The notes under the pieces: model-generated
Told to the model about the DNA's origin: nothing
The model's database searches: none
Seen by the model: only the letters and a program-made list of their open reading frames with translations
Assembly (NCBI RefSeq): GCF_964030745.1
Contig: NZ_OZ034918.1
Coordinates: 600,001 to 632,000, forward strand
From: Candidatus Saccharimonadota bacterium
GTDB taxonomy: Bacteria; Bacteroidota; Bacteroidia; Cytophagales; Amoebophilaceae
Reading direction: 5' to 3'
DNA: 32,000 nt
Program-made: the position numbers and the translations under genes
Part shown: positions 10,038 through 24,902 of the stretch, in pieces
Numbering within the stretch: the stretch's first letter is position 1
Layout: every line of letters starts with the position of its first letter

Positions 10038-13000
10038 ATGATACAATCAATATATACCGTTATCGTAATGGCTATTTTTTTAATAGCCACCCCTTATAAG
10101 GGCTTCTCTGCAGCCAACCACCAACCCAGTTCATTTCCGGAAGCCATTTTGCATGAAGGGGTAGTACTTTTTGATCAACATCAATATGCAATGGCCCAAA
10201 AGTACTTCGAAACCTATTTAAGCAGTCAGAAAAAAAAGTATCAACAAGATGAGGCTGCTTATTATGCGGTACGTTCTGCTTTAAAAAATAAAGATCCGCA
10301 TGTCGACATCCTTTTGCAATACTTTATAGTAAGGTATCCTACCAGCACACATGCAGAAACCATGCGTTATCATTTAGCAAAATGTTTTTTTGAAACAGGT
10401 TTGTTTGATAAAAGTCTTGCGCTATATCGAAATATTGAAGCAGCTTGCTTGTTGCCTAAGGAGCGAGCAGCCCTTCCATATGAGGTGGGCGTTACTTGTT
10501 TACAACTAAAACGTTGGGAAGATGCAAAAAAATGGTTTGGCGCTATTCAAAACAAAGATCATGCTTATTATTATCCTGCACAATTACAGATGAGCTATAT
10601 AGCTTTTGAGCAAGGAGATTATGATGGTGCGCTGGCAGCACTTAAAAAAGCCAGTAAAAAATATCCCCTAGAAACCCAACAATTAACATTAAAAGTATAC
10701 CATAAAGCGGAGCAATTTGAACCATTGCTTGCCTATGTGCAAAGCTGTGCTGCCTCCTCTTTTACCAAACAAGATCGGTTGCTTATTGCTGATGCTTATT
10801 TTTTCCTTAAGCAATATCCAAACGCCATTATCCACTATCAGGCTGCATTAGATGATGAGACAGACAGCATAACCCGGGCTAAGCTGGGCCATGCTTTATA
10901 TGAAACGGAACAGTATGATCAAGCGATGGCTTGCTTTGAGCAATTGTTGTATACGCCTAGCCCTCTTTCGAAAGCGATTGGTGGTACGCAAATTTTAGGA
11001 GAAGCGCAGTCGAGCACTGCAGCATGCTCAGATGTGTTTGAGGAGCATAGACAAGCTTCGACACCAAAACTACCATCAGAAATTGAGCTTCAAAAGAGGT
11101 CTAATGATCGTGCCAGTCAAATTGCTGCCTACTATAGTGGTCTTATCTATGAAAAAGATGGTGCCATTCCATCCGCCATAGCTGCTTTTGCTCAAGCTGA
11201 ACGGCTAAAGTCTGATACAGAAATAGGCGATTTGGCTGCTATCAAGCTTGCAGGTTTGCGTTATCAACAAGGGGCCCTTACAGAGGTTATAGAATCGATG
11301 ACTGCTTTTATAGCAGCCCACCAAGAAAGCAAGCATCTTTCCACTGCACAAGCCTTACTGATGCAGTGCTACTATAAAACAAAAGCTTACCAACTAGCTA
11401 TAGATTATATAGCAACGCTACCCTATAAAACTGAATCACTCTTAAGATTATACCAAAAAGTACTGTTTTATAGAGGGTTAGAAGCCTACAATATGGTTAC
11501 GTTAGATGTTGCTGTTCAATACTTGAAGCAATCGTTGCTTTTCCCTTTTAAGCCATCTTTAGTGCTACAAGCCCAGTTTTGGCTGGGAGAAACCTTTTCT
11601 GCGCTGGGGAAATATGATAAAGCATTAAAGTTTTATACAAAATATATGCAAGAAGGCAGTTTAAATACACTCTATTATGAGAAAAACCTATATGGACTAG
11701 CCTATGGTTATTTTAACACGGGTCATTACACCACTGCAGCCAAAACCTTTGAGCAATATATAGCGATTACGGAAAAACAACCTGCTGCTACCCACTATGA
11801 TGCAATCCTTCGGTTGGCTGATTGTTATTATGTAAAGAAAAACTACGAAGCAGCACTTAAGTTATATGCACGTGTGTATACCTATAATCCAGCCCATGTT
11901 CGCTACCAAGAAGCACTCATTTATCAGGCATTAGGAGACAATGCTCGTTCAGAACGTTGCCTCCAGGAAGTACTCACCAACCATACAGAAACTAAATATT
12001 ATGAAAAAGCATGCTATCATAAGGCTTGTACCGTATTCAATGCAGGCAATTATGCAGCAGCCATTCAATCATTTAGCTACCTGATTGAAAGGGACCCAGC
12101 TAGTGCCCTATATCCAGATTTATTAATGAAACGGGCTATTGCTTATGAAAACCTTCAAAAATATGAGGCCGCTGCTGCCGATTATATGGCCATTTTAGAT
12201 CAATACCCTACACATCTCCATGCAGAAAGTGCTTTAATGGCCTTATCGAACCTATCTGCTGGCACTCCTGAAAAAATGGATGTCTATTTAGAAAAGTATG
12301 CCCATATCGCCCAAAAAATGGCCAGCCATTCCGACGAGCGTGCCATTGATGGAGCCAGACAGCTCTTTTATAGTCAAGCTTACGATAAGGTATTGCAACA
12401 ACTTACTGGTTTCGATAAGAAACATCCACGTAGTCAGCTGCTTTCAGAGGCTTATTTTTTAATGGCAGAAAGCTATTATAGGCTCCAAAAGTACACTCAG
12501 GCTATAGGCTATTATAAAAAGGTAGCAGCTAGCCGTCAAGTTACCTTTCATAAAAAAGCATGGTTAAGAATGGCTGATCTGGCCTACCAAGGCAAGCGTT
12601 TTCAAGAGGCGGTCACCCATTACCAAAAACTCCAGCATATGCAACTAACCGATAAAGAATACCACCATGTCTTAACTGGGCTTATAAAGGCTAGTTTTCT
12701 TCTAAAGCAATATCAAGTTACAACACCGGCTTGTTTACAATTATTAAATAGTCCTAAAGATGCACCTATTGAAATCATTCAACAGGCTTCTCTTTATCTA
12801 GGAAAGGTAATGATGCAACGATCAGAATACCAACGTGCTAGAAGCCATTTTTTAAAGGCTAGTACTCCACAACATACTGTTACTGCAGCAGAAGCACAAT
12901 ATCTCTTGGCCCATACAGCATTTAAGCTAAAAGCCTACAAGGCCTCTTTAAATAATTTATTTGACCTTGTAGAAAAATTTACACACAACAATCATTATAT

Positions 13001-13169
13001 AGACGATGCCTTTTTACTTATGGCAGATAACTATACAATGATGGGTAATCTTACACAAGCCAAAGCCACCTTGGACTCTATGATTGGTCAATCCAAAAAT
13101 AAAAAGAAGATTGGCCTGGCCAAGCAAAAAAGAGCCGCAGTGGTTGCTAAAATTAAAAAGCAACAATAG
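10038..13169 (+). CDS. large secreted/periplasmic tetratricopeptide-repeat (TPR) protein
   Basis: ATG 10038 gives a signal-like N-terminus, MIQSIYTVIVMAIFLIATPYKGFSAA. The protein has many 34-aa TPR-like units (A..Y....Y..A...F......P). It carries a 48-codon non-TPR insert at 10959-11102. Confidence 0.8.
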   Translation: MIQSIYTVIVMAIFLIATPYKGFSAANHQPSSFPEAILHEGVVLFDQHQYAMAQKYFETYLSSQKKKYQQDEAAYYAVRSALKNKDPHVDILLQYFIVRYPTSTHAETMRYHLAKCFFETGLFDKSLALYRNIEAACLLPKERAALPYEVGVTCLQLKRWEDAKKWFGAIQNKDHAYYYPAQLQMSYIAFEQGDYDGALAALKKASKKYPLETQQLTLKVYHKAEQFEPLLAYVQSCAASSFTKQDRLLIADAYFFLKQYPNAIIHYQAALDDETDSITRAKLGHALYETEQYDQAMACFEQLLYTPSPLSKAIGGTQILGEAQSSTAACSDVFEEHRQASTPKLPSEIELQKRSNDRASQIAAYYSGLIYEKDGAIPSAIAAFAQAERLKSDTEIGDLAAIKLAGLRYQQGALTEVIESMTAFIAAHQESKHLSTAQALLMQCYYKTKAYQLAIDYIATLPYKTESLLRLYQKVLFYRGLEAYNMVTLDVAVQYLKQSLLFPFKPSLVLQAQFWLGETFSALGKYDKALKFYTKYMQEGSLNTLYYEKNLYGLAYGYFNTGHYTTAAKTFEQYIAITEKQPAATHYDAILRLADCYYVKKNYEAALKLYARVYTYNPAHVRYQEALIYQALGDNARSERCLQEVLTNHTETKYYEKACYHKACTVFNAGNYAAAIQSFSYLIERDPASALYPDLLMKRAIAYENLQKYEAAAADYMAILDQYPTHLHAESALMALSNLSAGTPEKMDVYLEKYAHIAQKMASHSDERAIDGARQLFYSQAYDKVLQQLTGFDKKHPRSQLLSEAYFLMAESYYRLQKYTQAIGYYKKVAASRQVTFHKKAWLRMADLAYQGKRFQEAVTHYQKLQHMQLTDKEYHHVLTGLIKASFLLKQYQVTTPACLQLLNSPKDAPIEIIQQASLYLGKVMMQRSEYQRARSHFLKASTPQHTVTAAEAQYLLAHTAFKLKAYKASLNNLFDLVEKFTHNNHYIDDAFLLMADNYTMMGNLTQAKATLDSMIGQSKNKKKIGLAKQKRAAVVAKIKKQQ
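10959..11102 (+). repeat. family-A palindromic element, copy A1, in-frame inside the TPR CDS
   Basis: 144 nt align end to end with 24038-24183 and with the reverse complement of 27985-28126. One conserved block is ttaggagaagcgcagtcgagcac...gatgtgtttgaggagcatagacaagcttcgacaccaaaa. The termini are degenerate (agccctctttcgaaagcgat / gagcttcaaaagaggtct). Confidence 0.8.
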
Positions 13170-18659: not shown

Positions 18660-18989
18660 GGCCACAATAGCTTTTCTGACCATTATCAGCCCTGCATCTC
18701 TTTCGATAAAAAAATGGTGCTCTAGTAAAACACTAACAGGTGAGCGATATGTTTTTTAGCTCCCACCCACACCGCGGGTTATACCCAACAGTGTGGGTTA
18801 TACCCAAAAAAGAAACTTCATAGAATATAGAGTGAAGTTTCTTAGAAGCGGATTAGAAAATCGTCTGTGTGAAGCACGCGTAGCGGGCTGAGTTCACGAT
18901 TTTCCCGCTGAAAAAGATATCGATTCAGCTATTTACTATCGGGCCAGACTTTTTATCGAAGGAGATAAGGGGGGGCAGCCACAGGCGTG
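18660..18989. repeat. family-B MITE-like element, copy B2 (left terminus degraded, 88-bp nested insertion at 18761-18848)
   Basis: It matches 29372-29642 across ...cattatcagcc...tcgataaaaaaatggtgctctagtaaaacactaaca...gcggattagaaaatcgtctgtgtgaagcacgcgtagcgggctgagttcacgattttcccgctgaaaaagatatcgattcagctatttactatcgggccagactttttatcgaaggagataagg...ccacaggcgtg. Confidence 0.75.
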
Positions 18990-19042
18990 TAATGAAGTTC
19001 CTTAAAAAACTAGAAAAAATGCGTTTTCAACCACAGTGCTGA

Positions 19043-19093
19043 GTAAAAAAATAAGATAAATTCCTTAAGTTGGCGCCATTGCTTGAACAGATA
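19043..19093. repeat. about 50-bp conserved module C (second copy at 29653-29702)
   Basis: gtaaaaaaataagataaattccttaagttggcgccattgcttgaacagata here, versus gtaaaaaataagacaaattccttaagttggcgccattgggtgaacggata at the other site. Both lie shortly after a family-B element. Confidence 0.7.
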
Positions 19094-23396: not shown

Positions 23397-24020
23397 TCAA
23401 TTGATCGTTGTATTGGTTGTGCTGCTTTTCGGATTTGCAACTGTTTGAATATATGCTAAGACCTCTTCTATGCCCAGTTTATTGTGTGCAGAAACACTAA
23501 AGATGGGTGGAAGCGTTGCCCAGTCTTGTTGCAGCATATGGGTTAGCGCCATATGGTGTTTTTGGGCCACCATTTTATGTTTTTTGTCTGCTTTTGTAAG
23601 TATAATAGCAAAAGGAACATGGTGTACACCCAACCAATGTATGCATGCAAGATCAATCGCTTGAGGTGGAATTTTTGCATCAAGCAATACAAAAACAGTA
23701 ACCATATTGGGCCTATGCAAAAGGTACTCCCGTAACATTTTTCCCCATTTTATTTTTGTTGCATGCCCTACTTGTGCCCATCCATATCCTGGGAGATCTA
23801 CAAAATAGATCTGGTTATTCACTAAAAAATGATGAATCAGTTGTGTTTTTCCAGGCATTTTGGATACCCTAGCCAATTGTTTCCGCTGCAAAAGTGCATT
23901 AATTAAGGAGGACTTGCCTACGTTAGAACGGCCTATAAAAGCCACTTCTGGTTTGGTATCATGGGGGCACATTTTATAGTGTGTGTTGCTGGATACCAGA
24001 GCAATAGAATGGATTTTCAT
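23397..24020 (-). CDS. engB: ribosome biogenesis GTP-binding protein YsxC/EngB
   Basis: 207 aa; EVAFIGRSNVGKSSLINALL (G1), DLPGYG (G3), LTKADK (G4). Confidence 0.88.
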   Translation of the reverse strand: MKIHSIALVSSNTHYKMCPHDTKPEVAFIGRSNVGKSSLINALLQRKQLARVSKMPGKTQLIHHFLVNNQIYFVDLPGYGWAQVGHATKIKWGKMLREYLLHRPNMVTVFVLLDAKIPPQAIDLACIHWLGVHHVPFAIILTKADKKHKMVAQKHHMALTHMLQQDWATLPPIFSVSAHNKLGIEEVLAYIQTVANPKSSTTNTTIN

Positions 24021-24037
24021 ATATAATTTCTATTATT

Positions 24038-24183
24038 AGACCTTCTGCAAAAGCTATTTGTGATCAGCATTTTTAGGAGCATCGCAGTCGAGCATCGCAG
24101 CATACTAATACTAGATGTATTTGAGGAGCATAGACAAGCTTCGATACCAAAATTGCCATTAGCATAGCTTTTGCAGAAGGTCT
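24038..24183. repeat. family-A palindromic MITE-like element, copy A2
   Basis: It has perfect 20-nt terminal inverted repeats, AGACCTTCTGCAAAAGCTAT ... ATAGCTTTTGCAGAAGGTCT. It is flanked by direct ATT (24035-24037 and 24184-24186) and lies 17 nt upstream of the engB start codon. Confidence 0.85.
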
Positions 24184-24189
24184 ATTAAC

Positions 24190-24824
24190 CATATCTCCTA
24201 TGGCGCAAGTTAATGAAAAGAATGTTGTTTCGTACATCGTGAGGCCGTTGTTATAGGCCTGTAGTATAATTTTCGTTATGCTTCTAGCGTAGTAGTTGAT
24301 ATTTAATCTGACATTTGTTAATTTGTGTTGATATAAATAACGACTACTATTATGGCTAGGGGCTTTTGTGGTACTGACGGCCAAGACTAACCCTTCTTTA
24401 CTTTCCACAAGGATGTGTCTTTTATATGGAAACGGTCTCATTTTGATCCTTAAGTGCGTTAATTTCATCTTTATGTACACTAACAACCTTGAATGGATCA
24501 AAGACTGTGGAGGCATTCTCTAAAAACTGACGTTGCCAATTTTAAAGAGTTTAGCAAGCGGCAGATATTAGAATTGTGTAAATTGAATTAATAGCCCAAA
24601 AATGTGTGTGTGATATAGGTCCTGTAGTATATCAGTACGCATAAAACATTGTCCTGCAACGTTGTTACATGAGACTTTCTTCCATGGCATTGCTTCTGTT
24701 CTACGATTTTTTCTCAAGATGGACCTAGCCTCTTAATGACTTCTTCGAATTCTGAAACTGTTAAACCTGCCAATTGCCTAAAAACATGTGGTGTTTTGGA
24801 CAATCCTTGGAAATCTATTGACAT
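24190..24824 (-). pseudogene. decayed DDE transposase (HTH_Tnp_4 + DDE_Tnp_4, IS5/Harbinger-like type)
   Basis: The minus-strand reading from ATG 24824 is MSIDFQGLSKTPHVFRQLAGLTVSEFEEVIKRLGPS*EKIVEQKQCHGRKSHVTTLQDNVLCVLIYYRTYITHTFLGY*FNLHNSNICRLLNSLKL. Another frame then gives RPFPYKRHILVESKEGLVLAVSTTKAPSH. These resemble the LTGL..EF, L.YLR.Y.T...LG and KKKRHT.K......G.I.....G..HD motifs, but there are in-frame stops, a frame change and a missing C-terminal half. Confidence 0.55.
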
Positions 24825-24881
24825 ATTTTATATTGTAAAGTATGTGTAATACAATTTTTATTATAATCATGCAACTAGTAC

Positions 24882-24902
24882 CTAGCTTTTCGCAGAGGGT
24901 CT
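24882..24902. repeat. solo family-A terminus (right-end orientation)
   Basis: ctagcttttcgcagagggtct compares with ATAGCTTTTGCAGAAGGTCT and is again followed by ATT. It lies 57 nt outside the transposase remnant start and 35 nt upstream of the ankyrin gene ATG. Confidence 0.65.

Follow-up and report, generated by a model that had tools for sequence, protein, structure and literature searches.

A probable RPE-1-family palindromic element in frame within a TPR protein gene of a Cardinium symbiont

Described palindromic elements and MITEs of intracellular bacteria

In-frame 'selfish DNA inside proteins' has hitherto been treated as a peculiarity of Rickettsia, and was later extended to Wolbachia. 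RPE-1 (Ogata et al. 2000, 2002), whose peptide is covered by the curated NCBIfam model TIGR01045 with a cut-off of 30 bits, is a palindromic repeat of about 100-150 bp with many dispersed copies. It is inserted in frame in unrelated genes, which stay intact, always in one frame of the element, and the encoded segment lies at the protein surface, off the fold core. I found that a repeat in Cardinium (Bacteroidota, Amoebophilaceae) shares with RPE-1 the length (144 nt, 48 aa), the reading frame and the RPLSK...FRKRS termini, and is likewise in frame in unrelated genes and dispersed in genic and intergenic DNA. As in Cardinium, a copy of RPE-1 in R. asiatica is flanked by a 3-bp repeat. The Cardinium element differs in that its host is a Bacteroidota symbiont and not a member of the Rickettsiales, in that most of its copies are derived and non-coding, and in that the copy inside the TPR gene studied here scores under the model cut-off. 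Since RPE-1 has already been extended to Wolbachia, which is included in the range of the RPE family (PMC3767692), and to Tisiphia (NCBI annotation), a Rickettsia host is a historical rather than a diagnostic feature.

In Wolbachia, likewise an endosymbiont of arthropods, the palindromic repeats called WPEs (Ogata, Suhre & Claverie 2005, as cited in PMC3767692 and PMC4224334) are inserted in frame in housekeeping genes. Their host belongs to another phylum than Cardinium, and they were grouped with RPE-4/6/7, not with RPE-1 (PMC3767692). Nearest to the Cardinium element are the Wolbachia copies retrieved here (wCori, wCfeT and others), which may be distinct from the published WPE families; they have 58-71% peptide and 77-81% nucleotide identity to it.

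Cardinium itself has MITEs. MITECca01/02 of Cardinium cOegib (Halter et al. 2022, PMC9769881) are mostly intergenic and are thought to owe their mobility to a resident IS. Unlike the element described here, they are about 240 bp in length, derive from ISCca4 (IS982 family), were reported as unique to cOegib, and are not described there as in-frame or RPE-related (PMC9769881). Thus, identity with MITECca01 was rejected on the grounds of its length, its IS982 origin and its restriction to one strain. In Orientia tsutsugamushi, which like Cardinium is obligate intracellular with an arthropod host, mISOt1 and other MITEs share termini with their cognate IS and are amplified in trans, ISOt1 being a member of the IS5 family (Nakayama et al. 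2008, PMC2575882). In contrast to the Cardinium copies, no in-frame genic insertion is described for the Orientia MITEs in that paper, whose authors regard the Orientia repeats as unrelated to RPEs (PMC2575882).

No report of RPEs in Cardinium was found in the searchable literature, nor a published answer to how RPE-1 spreads. To that extent, the view of the initial annotation that such insertions had not been described for Bacteroidota holds. However, the NCBI pipeline has already given some small ORFs of the home genome the automatic name 'palindromic element RPE1 domain-containing protein'.

The in-gene copy and its host protein

The window, the whole 32,000-nt stretch of DNA analysed here, has three copies of the element, one inside a gene and two (A2 and A3) between genes (Table 1). 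The three copies align end to end, with a mean column identity of 83% and lengths of 144, 146 and 142 nt. A profile made from them recovered each copy with an E value of 2e-47 to 3e-44 (nhmmer). In 100 shuffles of the window, 0.00 matches were expected for the 22-nt terminal repeat and also for the 22-nt core, while 4 and 3 matches, respectively, were observed.

Table 1. Features of the window that bear on the palindromic element
Feature	Position	Strand	Remarks
Host gene, 1043-aa TPR protein (YbgF/BamD-like TPR solenoid), intact	10038..13169	+	ORF, translation, Pfam
Extra codon CCT, Pro307	10956..10958	+	brings the insertion to 147 nt / 49 codons
In-gene RPE-1-family copy, 144-nt open-frame subfamily	10959..11102	+	predicted residues 308-355 of the TPR protein
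Intergenic copy A2, 146 nt, non-coding subfamily	24038..24183	+	flanks ATT/ATT
Remnant of a different IS, ISCca7-like (IS5 group)	24241..24500	-	adjoins the 24501-24902 fragment; outside the element system
IS5-family 5' fragment (HTH_Tnp_4 type), with stops and frameshifts	24501..24902	-	translations, Pfam PF13613
Intergenic copy A3, 142 nt, non-coding subfamily	27985..28126	-	flanks TTG/TTG

The in-gene copy is in the sense orientation relative to the TPR gene, and its frame +1 is free of stops. Since it begins 921 nt (3 x 307) after the first base of the start codon, its first base is at codon position 1 of residue 308. The initial annotation had read these points correctly, as well as the full-length alignment of the three copies and the encoded peptide (SPLSKAIGG...ELQKRS). 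Its count of 48 codons is true for the 144-nt element, while the insertion relative to the orthologs has 49 codons, consisting of the 144 nt and a 3-nt duplication. The additional CCT codon is probably a mutated copy of the target-site duplication, with the AAT at 11103-11105 as its partner; because these two flanks are no longer identical, I infer the duplication here rather than read it directly.

The TPR protein matches at 100% a protein annotated in the Cardinium endosymbiont of the beetle Philonthus spinipes. The orthologs span 994-1027 aa, and the nearest one has 78% identity across 100% of the length. A block of exactly 49 aa is missing in 16 of 16 Cardinium orthologs, leaving a 49-column gap in the alignment. 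Since all the sequenced Cardinium orthologs are without it, the insertion arose in the lineage that led to the Philonthus spinipes symbiont. Pfam TPR families flank the insert on either side. In an AlphaFold2 model of the protein (mean pLDDT 81), the insert lies between two helices (293-304 and 348-373) in the TPR solenoid, whose adjoining blocks have a pLDDT of about 90. Residues 306-351 are nearly all coil with a pLDDT below 50, a value that is in part to be expected, since no other sequence is present in the alignment at the insert position. Thus, the structure prediction suggested in the initial annotation gave a predicted disordered loop between two TPR helices, and the location agrees with the surface position known for RPE-1 segments, with the same reservation about the alignment effect. 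The added residues would be a tolerated passenger in the form of a disordered loop, not a functional domain.

As a whole, the in-gene sequence is best explained as one copy of a miniature transposable element that is non-autonomous and belongs to the RPE-1 family, and I give this explanation a probability of about 0.88. The central proposal of the initial annotation, a mobile palindromic repeat that, like the Rickettsia RPEs, sits in frame within a gene, here one for a TPR protein, came through at each of the three points where it might have failed: the nucleotide similarity to the other copies is highly significant with 0 chance matches, none of the 16 orthologs has the block, and the open reading frame of the host gene is unbroken from start to stop.

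Membership in the RPE-1 family and two subfamilies

TIGR01045 gave 25.6 bits (E = 8.6e-6) for the in-gene copy, which is under the 30-bit cut-off, and 19.6 bits on the whole TPR protein. Sibling Cardinium copies are above the cut-off, namely P0040 (37.0 bits), P0046 (35.3), P0039 (35.0) and P0047 of the home genome (34.0). Since the TPR copy falls under the cut-off and has mismatched flanks, its membership comes partly through its identity to copies that pass. At the DNA level, it is 85-87% identical to the in-gene copies of BamA and GT39, 77% to the Wolbachia copy and 61% to the Rickettsia copy. A profile made from Cardinium copies only retrieved 107 cluster representatives, including named RPE1 proteins of Wolbachia, Tisiphia and Rickettsia; the R. 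asiatica, R. helvetica and Tisiphia proteins among them carry NCBI RPE1-domain names. The alignments with the Wolbachia and Rickettsia copies extend over 48 aa and 144 nt with no gaps. The Cardinium copies have 77-81% nucleotide identity to a copy of Wolbachia wCfeT (nhmmer E = 3e-28) and 61-65% to the R. asiatica copy (E = 5.5e-7). Judged by these comparisons, the element belongs to the RPE-1 family itself. The initial annotation was right about an in-frame, RPE-like insertion, but its term "analogous" has to give way to homology in view of the model hits, the reciprocal retrieval and the gap-free DNA alignment.

The element is 144 nt in length with terminal inverted repeats AGACCTCTTTCGAAA...TTTCGAAAGAGGTCT, which are translated in the sole open frame as RPLSK...FRKRS. 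It was found that the 144-nt subfamily is also in frame in a BamA/TamL gene and a GT39 glycosyltransferase gene of dust-mite Cardinium, always in frame +1 of the element as in the TPR gene. These two unrelated proteins, P0039 and P0040, thus have the same peptide in frame, and the protein annotated as LptE in the home genome has a more diverged in-frame match, at the peptide level only. The insert is also present in many proteins of Wolbachia, Tisiphia and Rickettsia, with the element frame unchanged in the host proteins of Wolbachia and Tisiphia. No Rfam RNA family was found to cover the element in an Rfam search.

The intergenic copies have the features of a MITE. They are short (127-146 nt, below 300 bp) and have no transposase gene, their frames encoding a short peptide at most. 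Their terminal inverted repeats are 25 nt with 96% complementarity in A2 and 22 nt with 100% complementarity in A3, and their target-site duplication is of a fixed length, exactly 3 bp. The hairpin z-scores of A2 and A3 (-6.1 and -9.3), together with lengths of 142-146 nt, match the dispersed palindromic repeat known as RPE-1, whereas the in-gene copy has a hairpin z-score of -0.98. A3 has stops in 6 of 6 frames. A2 is stop-free in the antisense frame -3 only, and when it is read in the phase of the coding copy, a stop is met after 12 codons (RPSAKAICDQHF*), as the initial annotation had noted.

From this stop it had been deduced that the coding copy was reshaped after the insertion. That deduction was not borne out, since the copy is a member of a pre-existing open-frame subfamily and it is the intergenic copies that are derived. 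All three in-gene Cardinium copies compared as DNA (TPR, BamA/TamL and GT39) make up one 144-nt open-frame subfamily, which on sequence comparison is the ancestral RPE-1 form, and by the same comparison the abundant intergenic copies are derived non-coding forms of 142 nt or shorter. Relative to the 144-nt form, the intergenic copies have lost two single bases and have altered termini. Most Cardinium copies are of this derived non-coding 142/127-nt form with the termini AGACCTTCTGCAAAA. The two subfamilies differ at the termini, and within each the change is present in both arms. The terminal variant AGACCTCTTTCGAAAG of the TPR copy is common to the other in-gene copies and to the Wolbachia and Rickettsia copies. 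Thus, what was first described as decayed termini is mainly another terminal-repeat variant, with some genuine decay reflected in the weak hairpin.

Besides the three copies of the window, there are about 16 copies in 44 kb of dust-mite Cardinium DNA, and copies exist in two further Cardinium genomes. A scan of a genome collection that does not contain the home genome, with the core 21-mer as the query, gave two loci only, in Cardinium cBcalN2 and in the Nabis limbatus Cardinium. The derived non-coding form (142 nt, with deletion variants of 127-137 nt) would have been amplified in the intergenic DNA of Cardinium. Inserts of this family lengthen conserved proteins (TPR, BamA/TamL and GT39) and give rise to small ORFs in Cardinium annotations that are spurious; masking the inserts is advisable in genome annotation and in comparative work.

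Insertion, spread and alternative explanations

A perfect 3-bp target-site duplication was found in 10 of 19 copies against a control rate of 3.2% (P = 7e-11), and the Rickettsia copy is among the ten. Since 144 nt and a 3-bp duplication add up to 147 nt or 49 codons per insertion, the downstream frame is never shifted. Insertions in the other five combinations of frame and orientation would meet stops and be purged, so that only about one in six genic insertions would survive. Such purging may account for the in-frame pattern of the genic copies: with a length of 3n, a 3-bp duplication and one stop-free frame, only sense insertions in phase 0 would persist. The differences between copies are spread evenly over codon positions 1/2/3 (e.g. 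5/8/8, 7/6/6 and 10/11/12), and the changed codons are mostly non-synonymous. As far as the sequences tell, the substitutions accumulate without protein-level selection, which is the pattern of DNA-level or neutral evolution.

This pattern bears on the idea that the RPE-1 peptide is useful to its host proteins, as a flexible linker or an interaction motif, and is kept by protein-level selection. The persistence of a 48-residue peptide in a constant frame in many unrelated proteins, from three genera belonging to two phyla, may be taken in this sense, and the reading frame is still open although enough time has passed for the TPR copy to lose its hairpin. However, the even and mostly non-synonymous changes speak against it, as do the predicted disorder of the insert and the fact that its conserved peptide ends are merely translated terminal repeats, and all the orthologs function without the insert; I consider such exaptation improbable. 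The open frame could also be a passing stage of a TPR gene that lost its function through the insertion and is effectively dead, on its way to a pseudogene. This is a common fate in endosymbiont genomes rich in ISs, and many mobile elements and pseudogenes occur in Cardinium genomes (PMC9769881). But the frame of 1043 codons is open throughout, the full-length identity of 78% to the nearest ortholog and the TPR repeats on both sides are conserved, and AlphaFold2 places the insertion in an inter-helix turn. Moreover, the divergence of the insert from its siblings and the loss of the hairpin imply time enough for stops to arise, and yet there are none, so that a dying gene is quite improbable, somewhat more so than exaptation. 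Bare similarity is all that would favour an ancestral 48-aa block, or a fortuitous resemblance, with the intergenic copies as gene fragments. Neither is credible to any real degree, given a block missing from all 16 orthologs, intergenic copies with perfect terminal inverted repeats and target-site duplications, the presence of the element in unrelated genes and in other phyla, and a chance expectation of 0. An inserted mobile element thus remains the preferred reading of the in-gene copy.

How the element moved is less certain. The IS5-family fragment of the window scores 36 bits with Pfam PF13613 (cut-off 27), and at 24883-24902, on its outer side, it has a sequence (reverse complement AGACCCTCTGCGAAAAGCTA) that agrees with the terminal repeat of the element and is followed by ATT. 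It lies 700 bp from A2, with the same ATT at both. The fragment is 55-62% identical to intact transposases of 275-277 aa (HTH_Tnp_4 + DDE_Tnp_4) at the loci L010 and L011, where the IS ends are AGACCCTCTGCAAAGC and AGACCCCCTGCGAAAAGC. It was revealed that IS5-family ISs from four independent sources end in AGACYYTCTGCRAAA, with 12-14 of 15 positions identical to the element copies and about 15-20 terminal nt shared. This IS type is therefore a candidate autonomous partner on sequence grounds, and the element may be, or may formerly have been, moved in trans by an IS5-family transposase with the HTH_Tnp_4 and DDE_Tnp_4 domains. Harbinger-like or IS5-subgroup transposases typically make 3-bp duplications.

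The nucleotide identity of 77-81% to Wolbachia copies across phyla points to horizontal transfer. The element may have reached Cardinium from, or along with, Rickettsiales symbionts in a shared host cell. The plasmid collection gave no match by blastn with the element or by tblastn with the peptide. Scans of viral sequences and JGI metagenomes with 17/23-mers common to Cardinium and Wolbachia gave 0 matches, with no sign of a phage vehicle. Taken together, RPE-1 might be a MITE of a Harbinger-like IS5-family IS that was transferred between Rickettsiales (Wolbachia, Rickettsia and Tisiphia) and Cardinium, where its termini then drifted towards the ends of the resident IS, a non-coding derivative being amplified to a high density, possibly hundreds of copies per genome. 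I regard this combined proposal as tentative and, on balance, doubtful. If it is true, the Cardinium data tell which enzyme moves RPEs, and the element termini and a P0182/P0197-type transposase make a tractable experimental pair.

Nearly even odds may be given to spread by another route, that is, by a different transposase or by recombination or gene conversion between palindromes, the likeness to the IS ends being coincidental or convergent. Only about 15-20 nt are shared with the IS, and two intact ISs lack a clean 3-bp duplication (ATA/ATG in one and none in the other). No intact HTH_Tnp_4 + DDE_Tnp_4 IS was seen in the Cardinium DNA examined, the home genome having decayed copies only, and the candidate transposase was not detected in dust-mite Cardinium, where the element is densest. 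Compared without gaps, the IS ends agree with the RPE-1-type terminus at 11/15 positions but with the derived intergenic type at 14/15. In contrast, exact 3-bp duplications are proof of a transposase-type insertion rather than recombination and are of the length typical for the transposases in question, AGACYYTCTGCRAAA is common to the element and to the IS ends of all four sources, and the same ATT follows the nearby IS fragment. The same element family, with about 80% nucleotide identity, is in genes of a symbiont from another phylum, which would directly demonstrate that non-autonomous elements of very small size pass between unrelated bacteria in a shared arthropod host cell. With clean terminal repeats, a firm 3-bp duplication and a candidate transposase, the movement of RPEs becomes testable.

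The neighbourhood of A2 has other features. The ISCca7-like remnant has a terminal repeat GAGGCCGTTGTTATAGG, which was compared with the ISCca7 ends in L007, and a transposase piece 70% identical to that of ISCca7. ISCca7 (IS5 group) was rejected as the partner IS, since its ends GAGACCGTTGCAATAGG are unlike those of the element and the remnant is merely adjacent. An ORF at 24073-24516 (147 aa) was rejected as a gene because it runs from the IS remnant into A2. On its other side, A2 is found upstream of a minus-strand EngB-like GTPase gene, at a distance of 18 nt from the start codon (24020).

Copies of the element and the insertion in the TPR gene

As proposed in the initial annotation, the three segments compared here are copies of one element. 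Aligned over their full length, they have a mean column identity of 83% and match a nucleotide profile with E = 2e-47 to 3e-44, and the number of chance matches expected from shuffled sequence is zero for the 22-nt terminus and for the 22-nt core, each. A2 and A3, the intergenic copies, have terminal inverted repeats of 22-25 nt (AGACCTTCTGCAAAAGCTATTT) and their DNA forms long hairpins (z = -6.1 and -9.3), a fold lost in the coding copy (z = -0.98).

Features of the window, with window positions
Feature	Position	Strand	Remarks
TPR protein gene	10038-13169		contains the coding copy
Coding copy	10959-11102	+	144 nt; flanking 3-mers CCT vs AAT, repeat lost
Intergenic copy A2	24038-24183	+	146 nt; flanking 3-mers ATT/ATT
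Intergenic copy A3	27985-28126	-	142 nt; flanking 3-mers TTG/TTG
EngB-like GTPase gene	23397-24020	-	
Spurious ORF	24073-24516	-	147 aa
ISCca7-like (IS5-group) remnant	end at 24241	-	end distinct from the element's
IS fragment	24501-24902	-	5' part of a different transposase; HTH_Tnp_4, 36 bits vs cut-off 27
Ankyrin-repeat protein gene	24938-26887	+	649 aa
Cys/Met-metabolism PLP enzyme ORF	28068-29369	+	overlapped by A3
Second repeat family	29367-29702, ~6225-6466, 18673-19093		~280-340 nt
Second repeat family, partial copy	7819-7943		inverted
Tandem small ORFs	3735-5908		222, 106, 100 and 116 aa
tRNA gene	7202-7275	+	Rfam, 68 bits
tRNA gene	7951-8024	-	Rfam, 68 bits

The TPR protein is 100% identical to one annotated in the Cardinium of Philonthus spinipes, strain icPhiSpin1 (assembly GCA_964030745.1; PMC12342168). 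The first base of the coding copy lies at a codon boundary, at residue 308, and the copy is open in the +1 and antisense -3 frames only. Translation gave exactly the peptide and the codon-boundary start reported before. The sense frame is closed in both intergenic copies; in A3 each of the six frames is interrupted by stops, and for A2 antisense -3 is the only open frame.

Is the inserted block present in orthologs? In an alignment of 16 Cardinium proteins of 994-1027 aa, spanning the whole TPR protein at an identity of 48-78% (BLASTP) or 51-81% (alignment), exactly 49 residues, bounded by '...QQLLH' and 'KNDHASQIAAYY...', are missing from all 16, which favours a lineage-specific insertion. 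The 16 include the dust-mite Cardinium ortholog, which lacks the block despite a genome otherwise full of the element. An AlphaFold2 model run on this alignment gave a confident TPR solenoid (mean pLDDT 81) with a low-confidence internal segment at residues 306-351 (block means 24-37), nearly all coil and flanked by helices 293-304 and 348-373, with adjacent blocks at about 90. The sole other internal low-confidence stretch is a short one at 758-764. The insert is therefore predicted to loop out of an inter-helix turn, with the low confidence partly expected from the single sequence at that position.

Only 18 nt separate the end of A2 from the start codon of the EngB-like GTPase gene downstream, so A2 must lie in the 5' leader or promoter region of that gene, where the strong hairpin could affect expression. 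The GTG start that would give the longest PLP enzyme ORF falls within A3; the true start is probably downstream of A3, e.g. the ATG near 28152. The 147-aa ORF was rejected as spurious; it runs from the ISCca7-like remnant through a 57-nt spacer into A2 and has no Pfam match.

Relationship to RPE-1 and the two forms of the element

RPEs are described as palindromic elements of 100-150 bp, first reported in Rickettsia by Ogata et al. in 2000 and known from Wolbachia too; in these accounts RPE-1, -2 and -3 often lie within ORFs at solvent-exposed sites, with the frame unbroken (PMC3767692, PMC4316617, PMC4224334, PMC10969869). The homolog search also gave two unrelated dust-mite Cardinium proteins, a GT39 glycosyltransferase and a BamA/TamL-type protein, whose matches are confined to an insert of about 50 residues in the same frame (identity 68-76%). 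With a peptide profile, a dozen small ORFs came up in Cardinium genomes, and NCBI has named two of them, one from the genome studied here, 'palindromic element RPE1 domain-containing protein'. Against TIGR01045, the curated RPE-1 peptide model with a cut-off of 30 bits (NCBIfam scan), the dust-mite in-gene copies P0040 and P0039 scored 37.0 and 35.0 bits, and the sibling copies P0046 and P0047 (the latter from the home genome) 35.3 and 34.0 bits. The coding copy of the window scored 25.6 bits (E = 8.6e-6), under the cut-off.

I also performed the reverse search, with a profile built from Cardinium copies only, against 1.84 billion representative proteins. The 107 matches include Wolbachia proteins (from the flea strains wCori and wCfeT and the Cantharis cryptica strain), proteins of Candidatus Tisiphia, and those of Rickettsia asiatica/helvetica, where NCBI uses the name RPE1. 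A more diverged in-frame match lies in LptE as annotated in the home genome, and another in proteins of other Cardinium MAGs. The peptides from the Cardinium TPR, BamA and GT39 proteins, Wolbachia, Tisiphia and Rickettsia align gap-free over 48 residues, and the conserved ends RPLSK and FRKRS are the translated arms of the terminal repeat. The DNA of the three in-gene Cardinium copies can likewise be aligned gap-free, over 144 nt, with one copy from Wolbachia wCfeT and one from R. asiatica; the Cardinium copies are 77-81% identical to the former and 61-65% to the latter. The likeness to Rickettsia palindromic elements seen earlier is thus real, but it was wrongly called analogy: the TIGR01045 scores of the sibling copies, the reciprocal search and the gap-free DNA alignment indicate homology, and by these comparisons the Cardinium element is RPE-1 itself, beyond RPE-like. 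An identity of 77-81% between Bacteroidota and Alphaproteobacteria genomes is not vertical, which points to horizontal transfer across phyla.

Two forms were distinguished among all copies in the window and in 44 kb of DNA from dust-mite Cardinium. All three copies inside real genes are 144 nt long with termini AGACCTCTTTCGAAAG.../...TTTCGAAAGAGGTCT and carry two single bases missing from the other copies. In intergenic DNA the copies measure 142 nt or, through internal deletions, 127-137 nt; they are closed in the sense frame and have termini altered on both arms (AGACCTTCTGCAAAA). Since the 144-nt form is also seen in Wolbachia and Rickettsia, it is ancestral and the intergenic form derived. 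Thus, against the first reading, the coding copy was not reshaped after insertion but belongs to a pre-existing open-frame subfamily. It differs from the dust-mite in-gene copies at 19-21 of 144 nt; with this divergence and the loss of the flanking repeat and hairpin, the insertion is relatively old. The copies differ about equally often at each codon position and the changed codons are mostly non-synonymous, giving no sign of selection on the peptide as a protein.

Literature searches found no paper tying RPEs to Cardinium or Amoebophilaceae, and both 'palindromic' and 'RPE' are absent from a 2025 review on Cardinium and from the paper on the dust-mite Cardinium genome. The sole Cardinium MITE paper found describes a different, strain-specific element of 240 bp derived from IS982 (PMC9769881). 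NCBI automatic annotation already puts the RPE1 name on some small Cardinium ORFs. This is RPE-1 in a new phylum; the initial observation is confirmed and its interpretation supported with corrections.

In the home genome, the annotated LptE (P0080, outside the window) has a more diverged in-frame RPE-1-type peptide at its N-terminal start (residues 6-61), which at the peptide level precedes an apparent hydrophobic signal segment. Either the element has entered a second gene of this genome, or the annotation places the start codon too far upstream. RPE-1 peptides of Wolbachia/Rickettsia type were also seen in insect-filed proteins of Cinara cedri (P0078, P0091, P0151) and Pseudolycoriella hygida (P0124), within bacterial-type domains (Mur ligase, riboflavin synthase-like, QueA); contamination of the insect assemblies by symbionts, or lateral transfer, is the probable cause.

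Target-site duplication and a candidate mobilising IS

Direct flanking repeats of exactly 3 bp were found at 10 of 19 copies, versus 3.2% in offset controls (P = 7e-11), including the GT39 copy (ATT/ATT) and the Rickettsia copy (AAT/AAT). The element's 144 nt plus a 3-bp duplication make 147 nt, or 49 codons, the same as the ortholog gap and one codon more than the 48 initially given. Every such insertion would leave the downstream frame unshifted, and would be harmless only in sense orientation and codon phase 0 because of stops in the element's other frames. Selection against the remaining insertions may then produce the in-frame pattern. A literature search for RPEs together with 'target site duplication' gave a general MITE review only.

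What mobilises the element? Two IS fragments lie on the minus strand between A2 and the ankyrin gene. The outer end of the one at 24501-24902 is AGACCCTCTGCGAAAAGCTA, nearly the element's terminus, followed by ATT. Its homologs all have HTH_Tnp_4, and the longer ones DDE_Tnp_4 as well; the home genome has one decayed homolog. I read the ends of this IS from four independent contigs: three copies on L008 (AGACCCTCTGCAAAGCTAC), one on L009 (AGACTTTCTGCGAAATTAG), and intact ISs of ~973 bp on L010 (AGACCCTCTGCAAAGC / AGATCCTCTGCAAAGC) and ~990 bp on L011 (AGACCCCCTGCGAAAAGC / AGACCCTCTGCGAATCG). The best ends are identical to the intergenic element's terminus at 14 of 15 positions and to the RPE-1-type terminus at 11 of 15, more with gaps. 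Harbinger-like IS5-family transposases typically give 3-bp duplications. This habit and the matching termini make a transposase of this class a candidate mobiliser, with about an even chance of being the right one. However, the likeness of the IS to the element is limited to the termini, a clean 3-bp repeat is absent at both intact ISs (ATA/ATG; none), and no copy of this transposase was detected in dust-mite Cardinium, which has the highest density of the element. Two new leads on the spread of RPE-1 emerge: the firm 3-bp duplication and the candidate IS partner.

Element density and other repeats

Two dust-mite Cardinium loci have about 10 copies in 22.5 kb (L003; CP101107.1, 459630-482125) and about 6 in 21.8 kb (L005), far above the density of the window. 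If this is typical, the 1.26-Mb chromosome would carry several hundred copies. Several small dust-mite Cardinium proteins annotated as 'hypothetical proteins' (within P0044-P0055) are mere translated copies.

A second, unrelated palindromic repeat family in the window has inverted ends of ~34 nt (GTATCTATTTACGCCTGTGACTGGGCCCC...). Its copies are all intergenic and share internal blocks at 90-96% identity; it looks like another MITE-type element. The four small ORFs follow one another in tandem at intervals of ~550-620 nt. Conserved among them are 85-120 nt of the 5' region, which take in the start and what is likely a signal/lipoprotein-type N-terminus; they look like a paralogous gene array. 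Units of 102 nt (34 codons) are repeated in tandem at least 15 times in the ankyrin gene, and some adjacent ones are up to 94% identical, which suggests recent repeat expansion. The two tRNA genes lie in a repeat-crowded region, and several of the mechanical ORFs near them (e.g. 7309-7773 and 7781-8047) probably do not represent genes.
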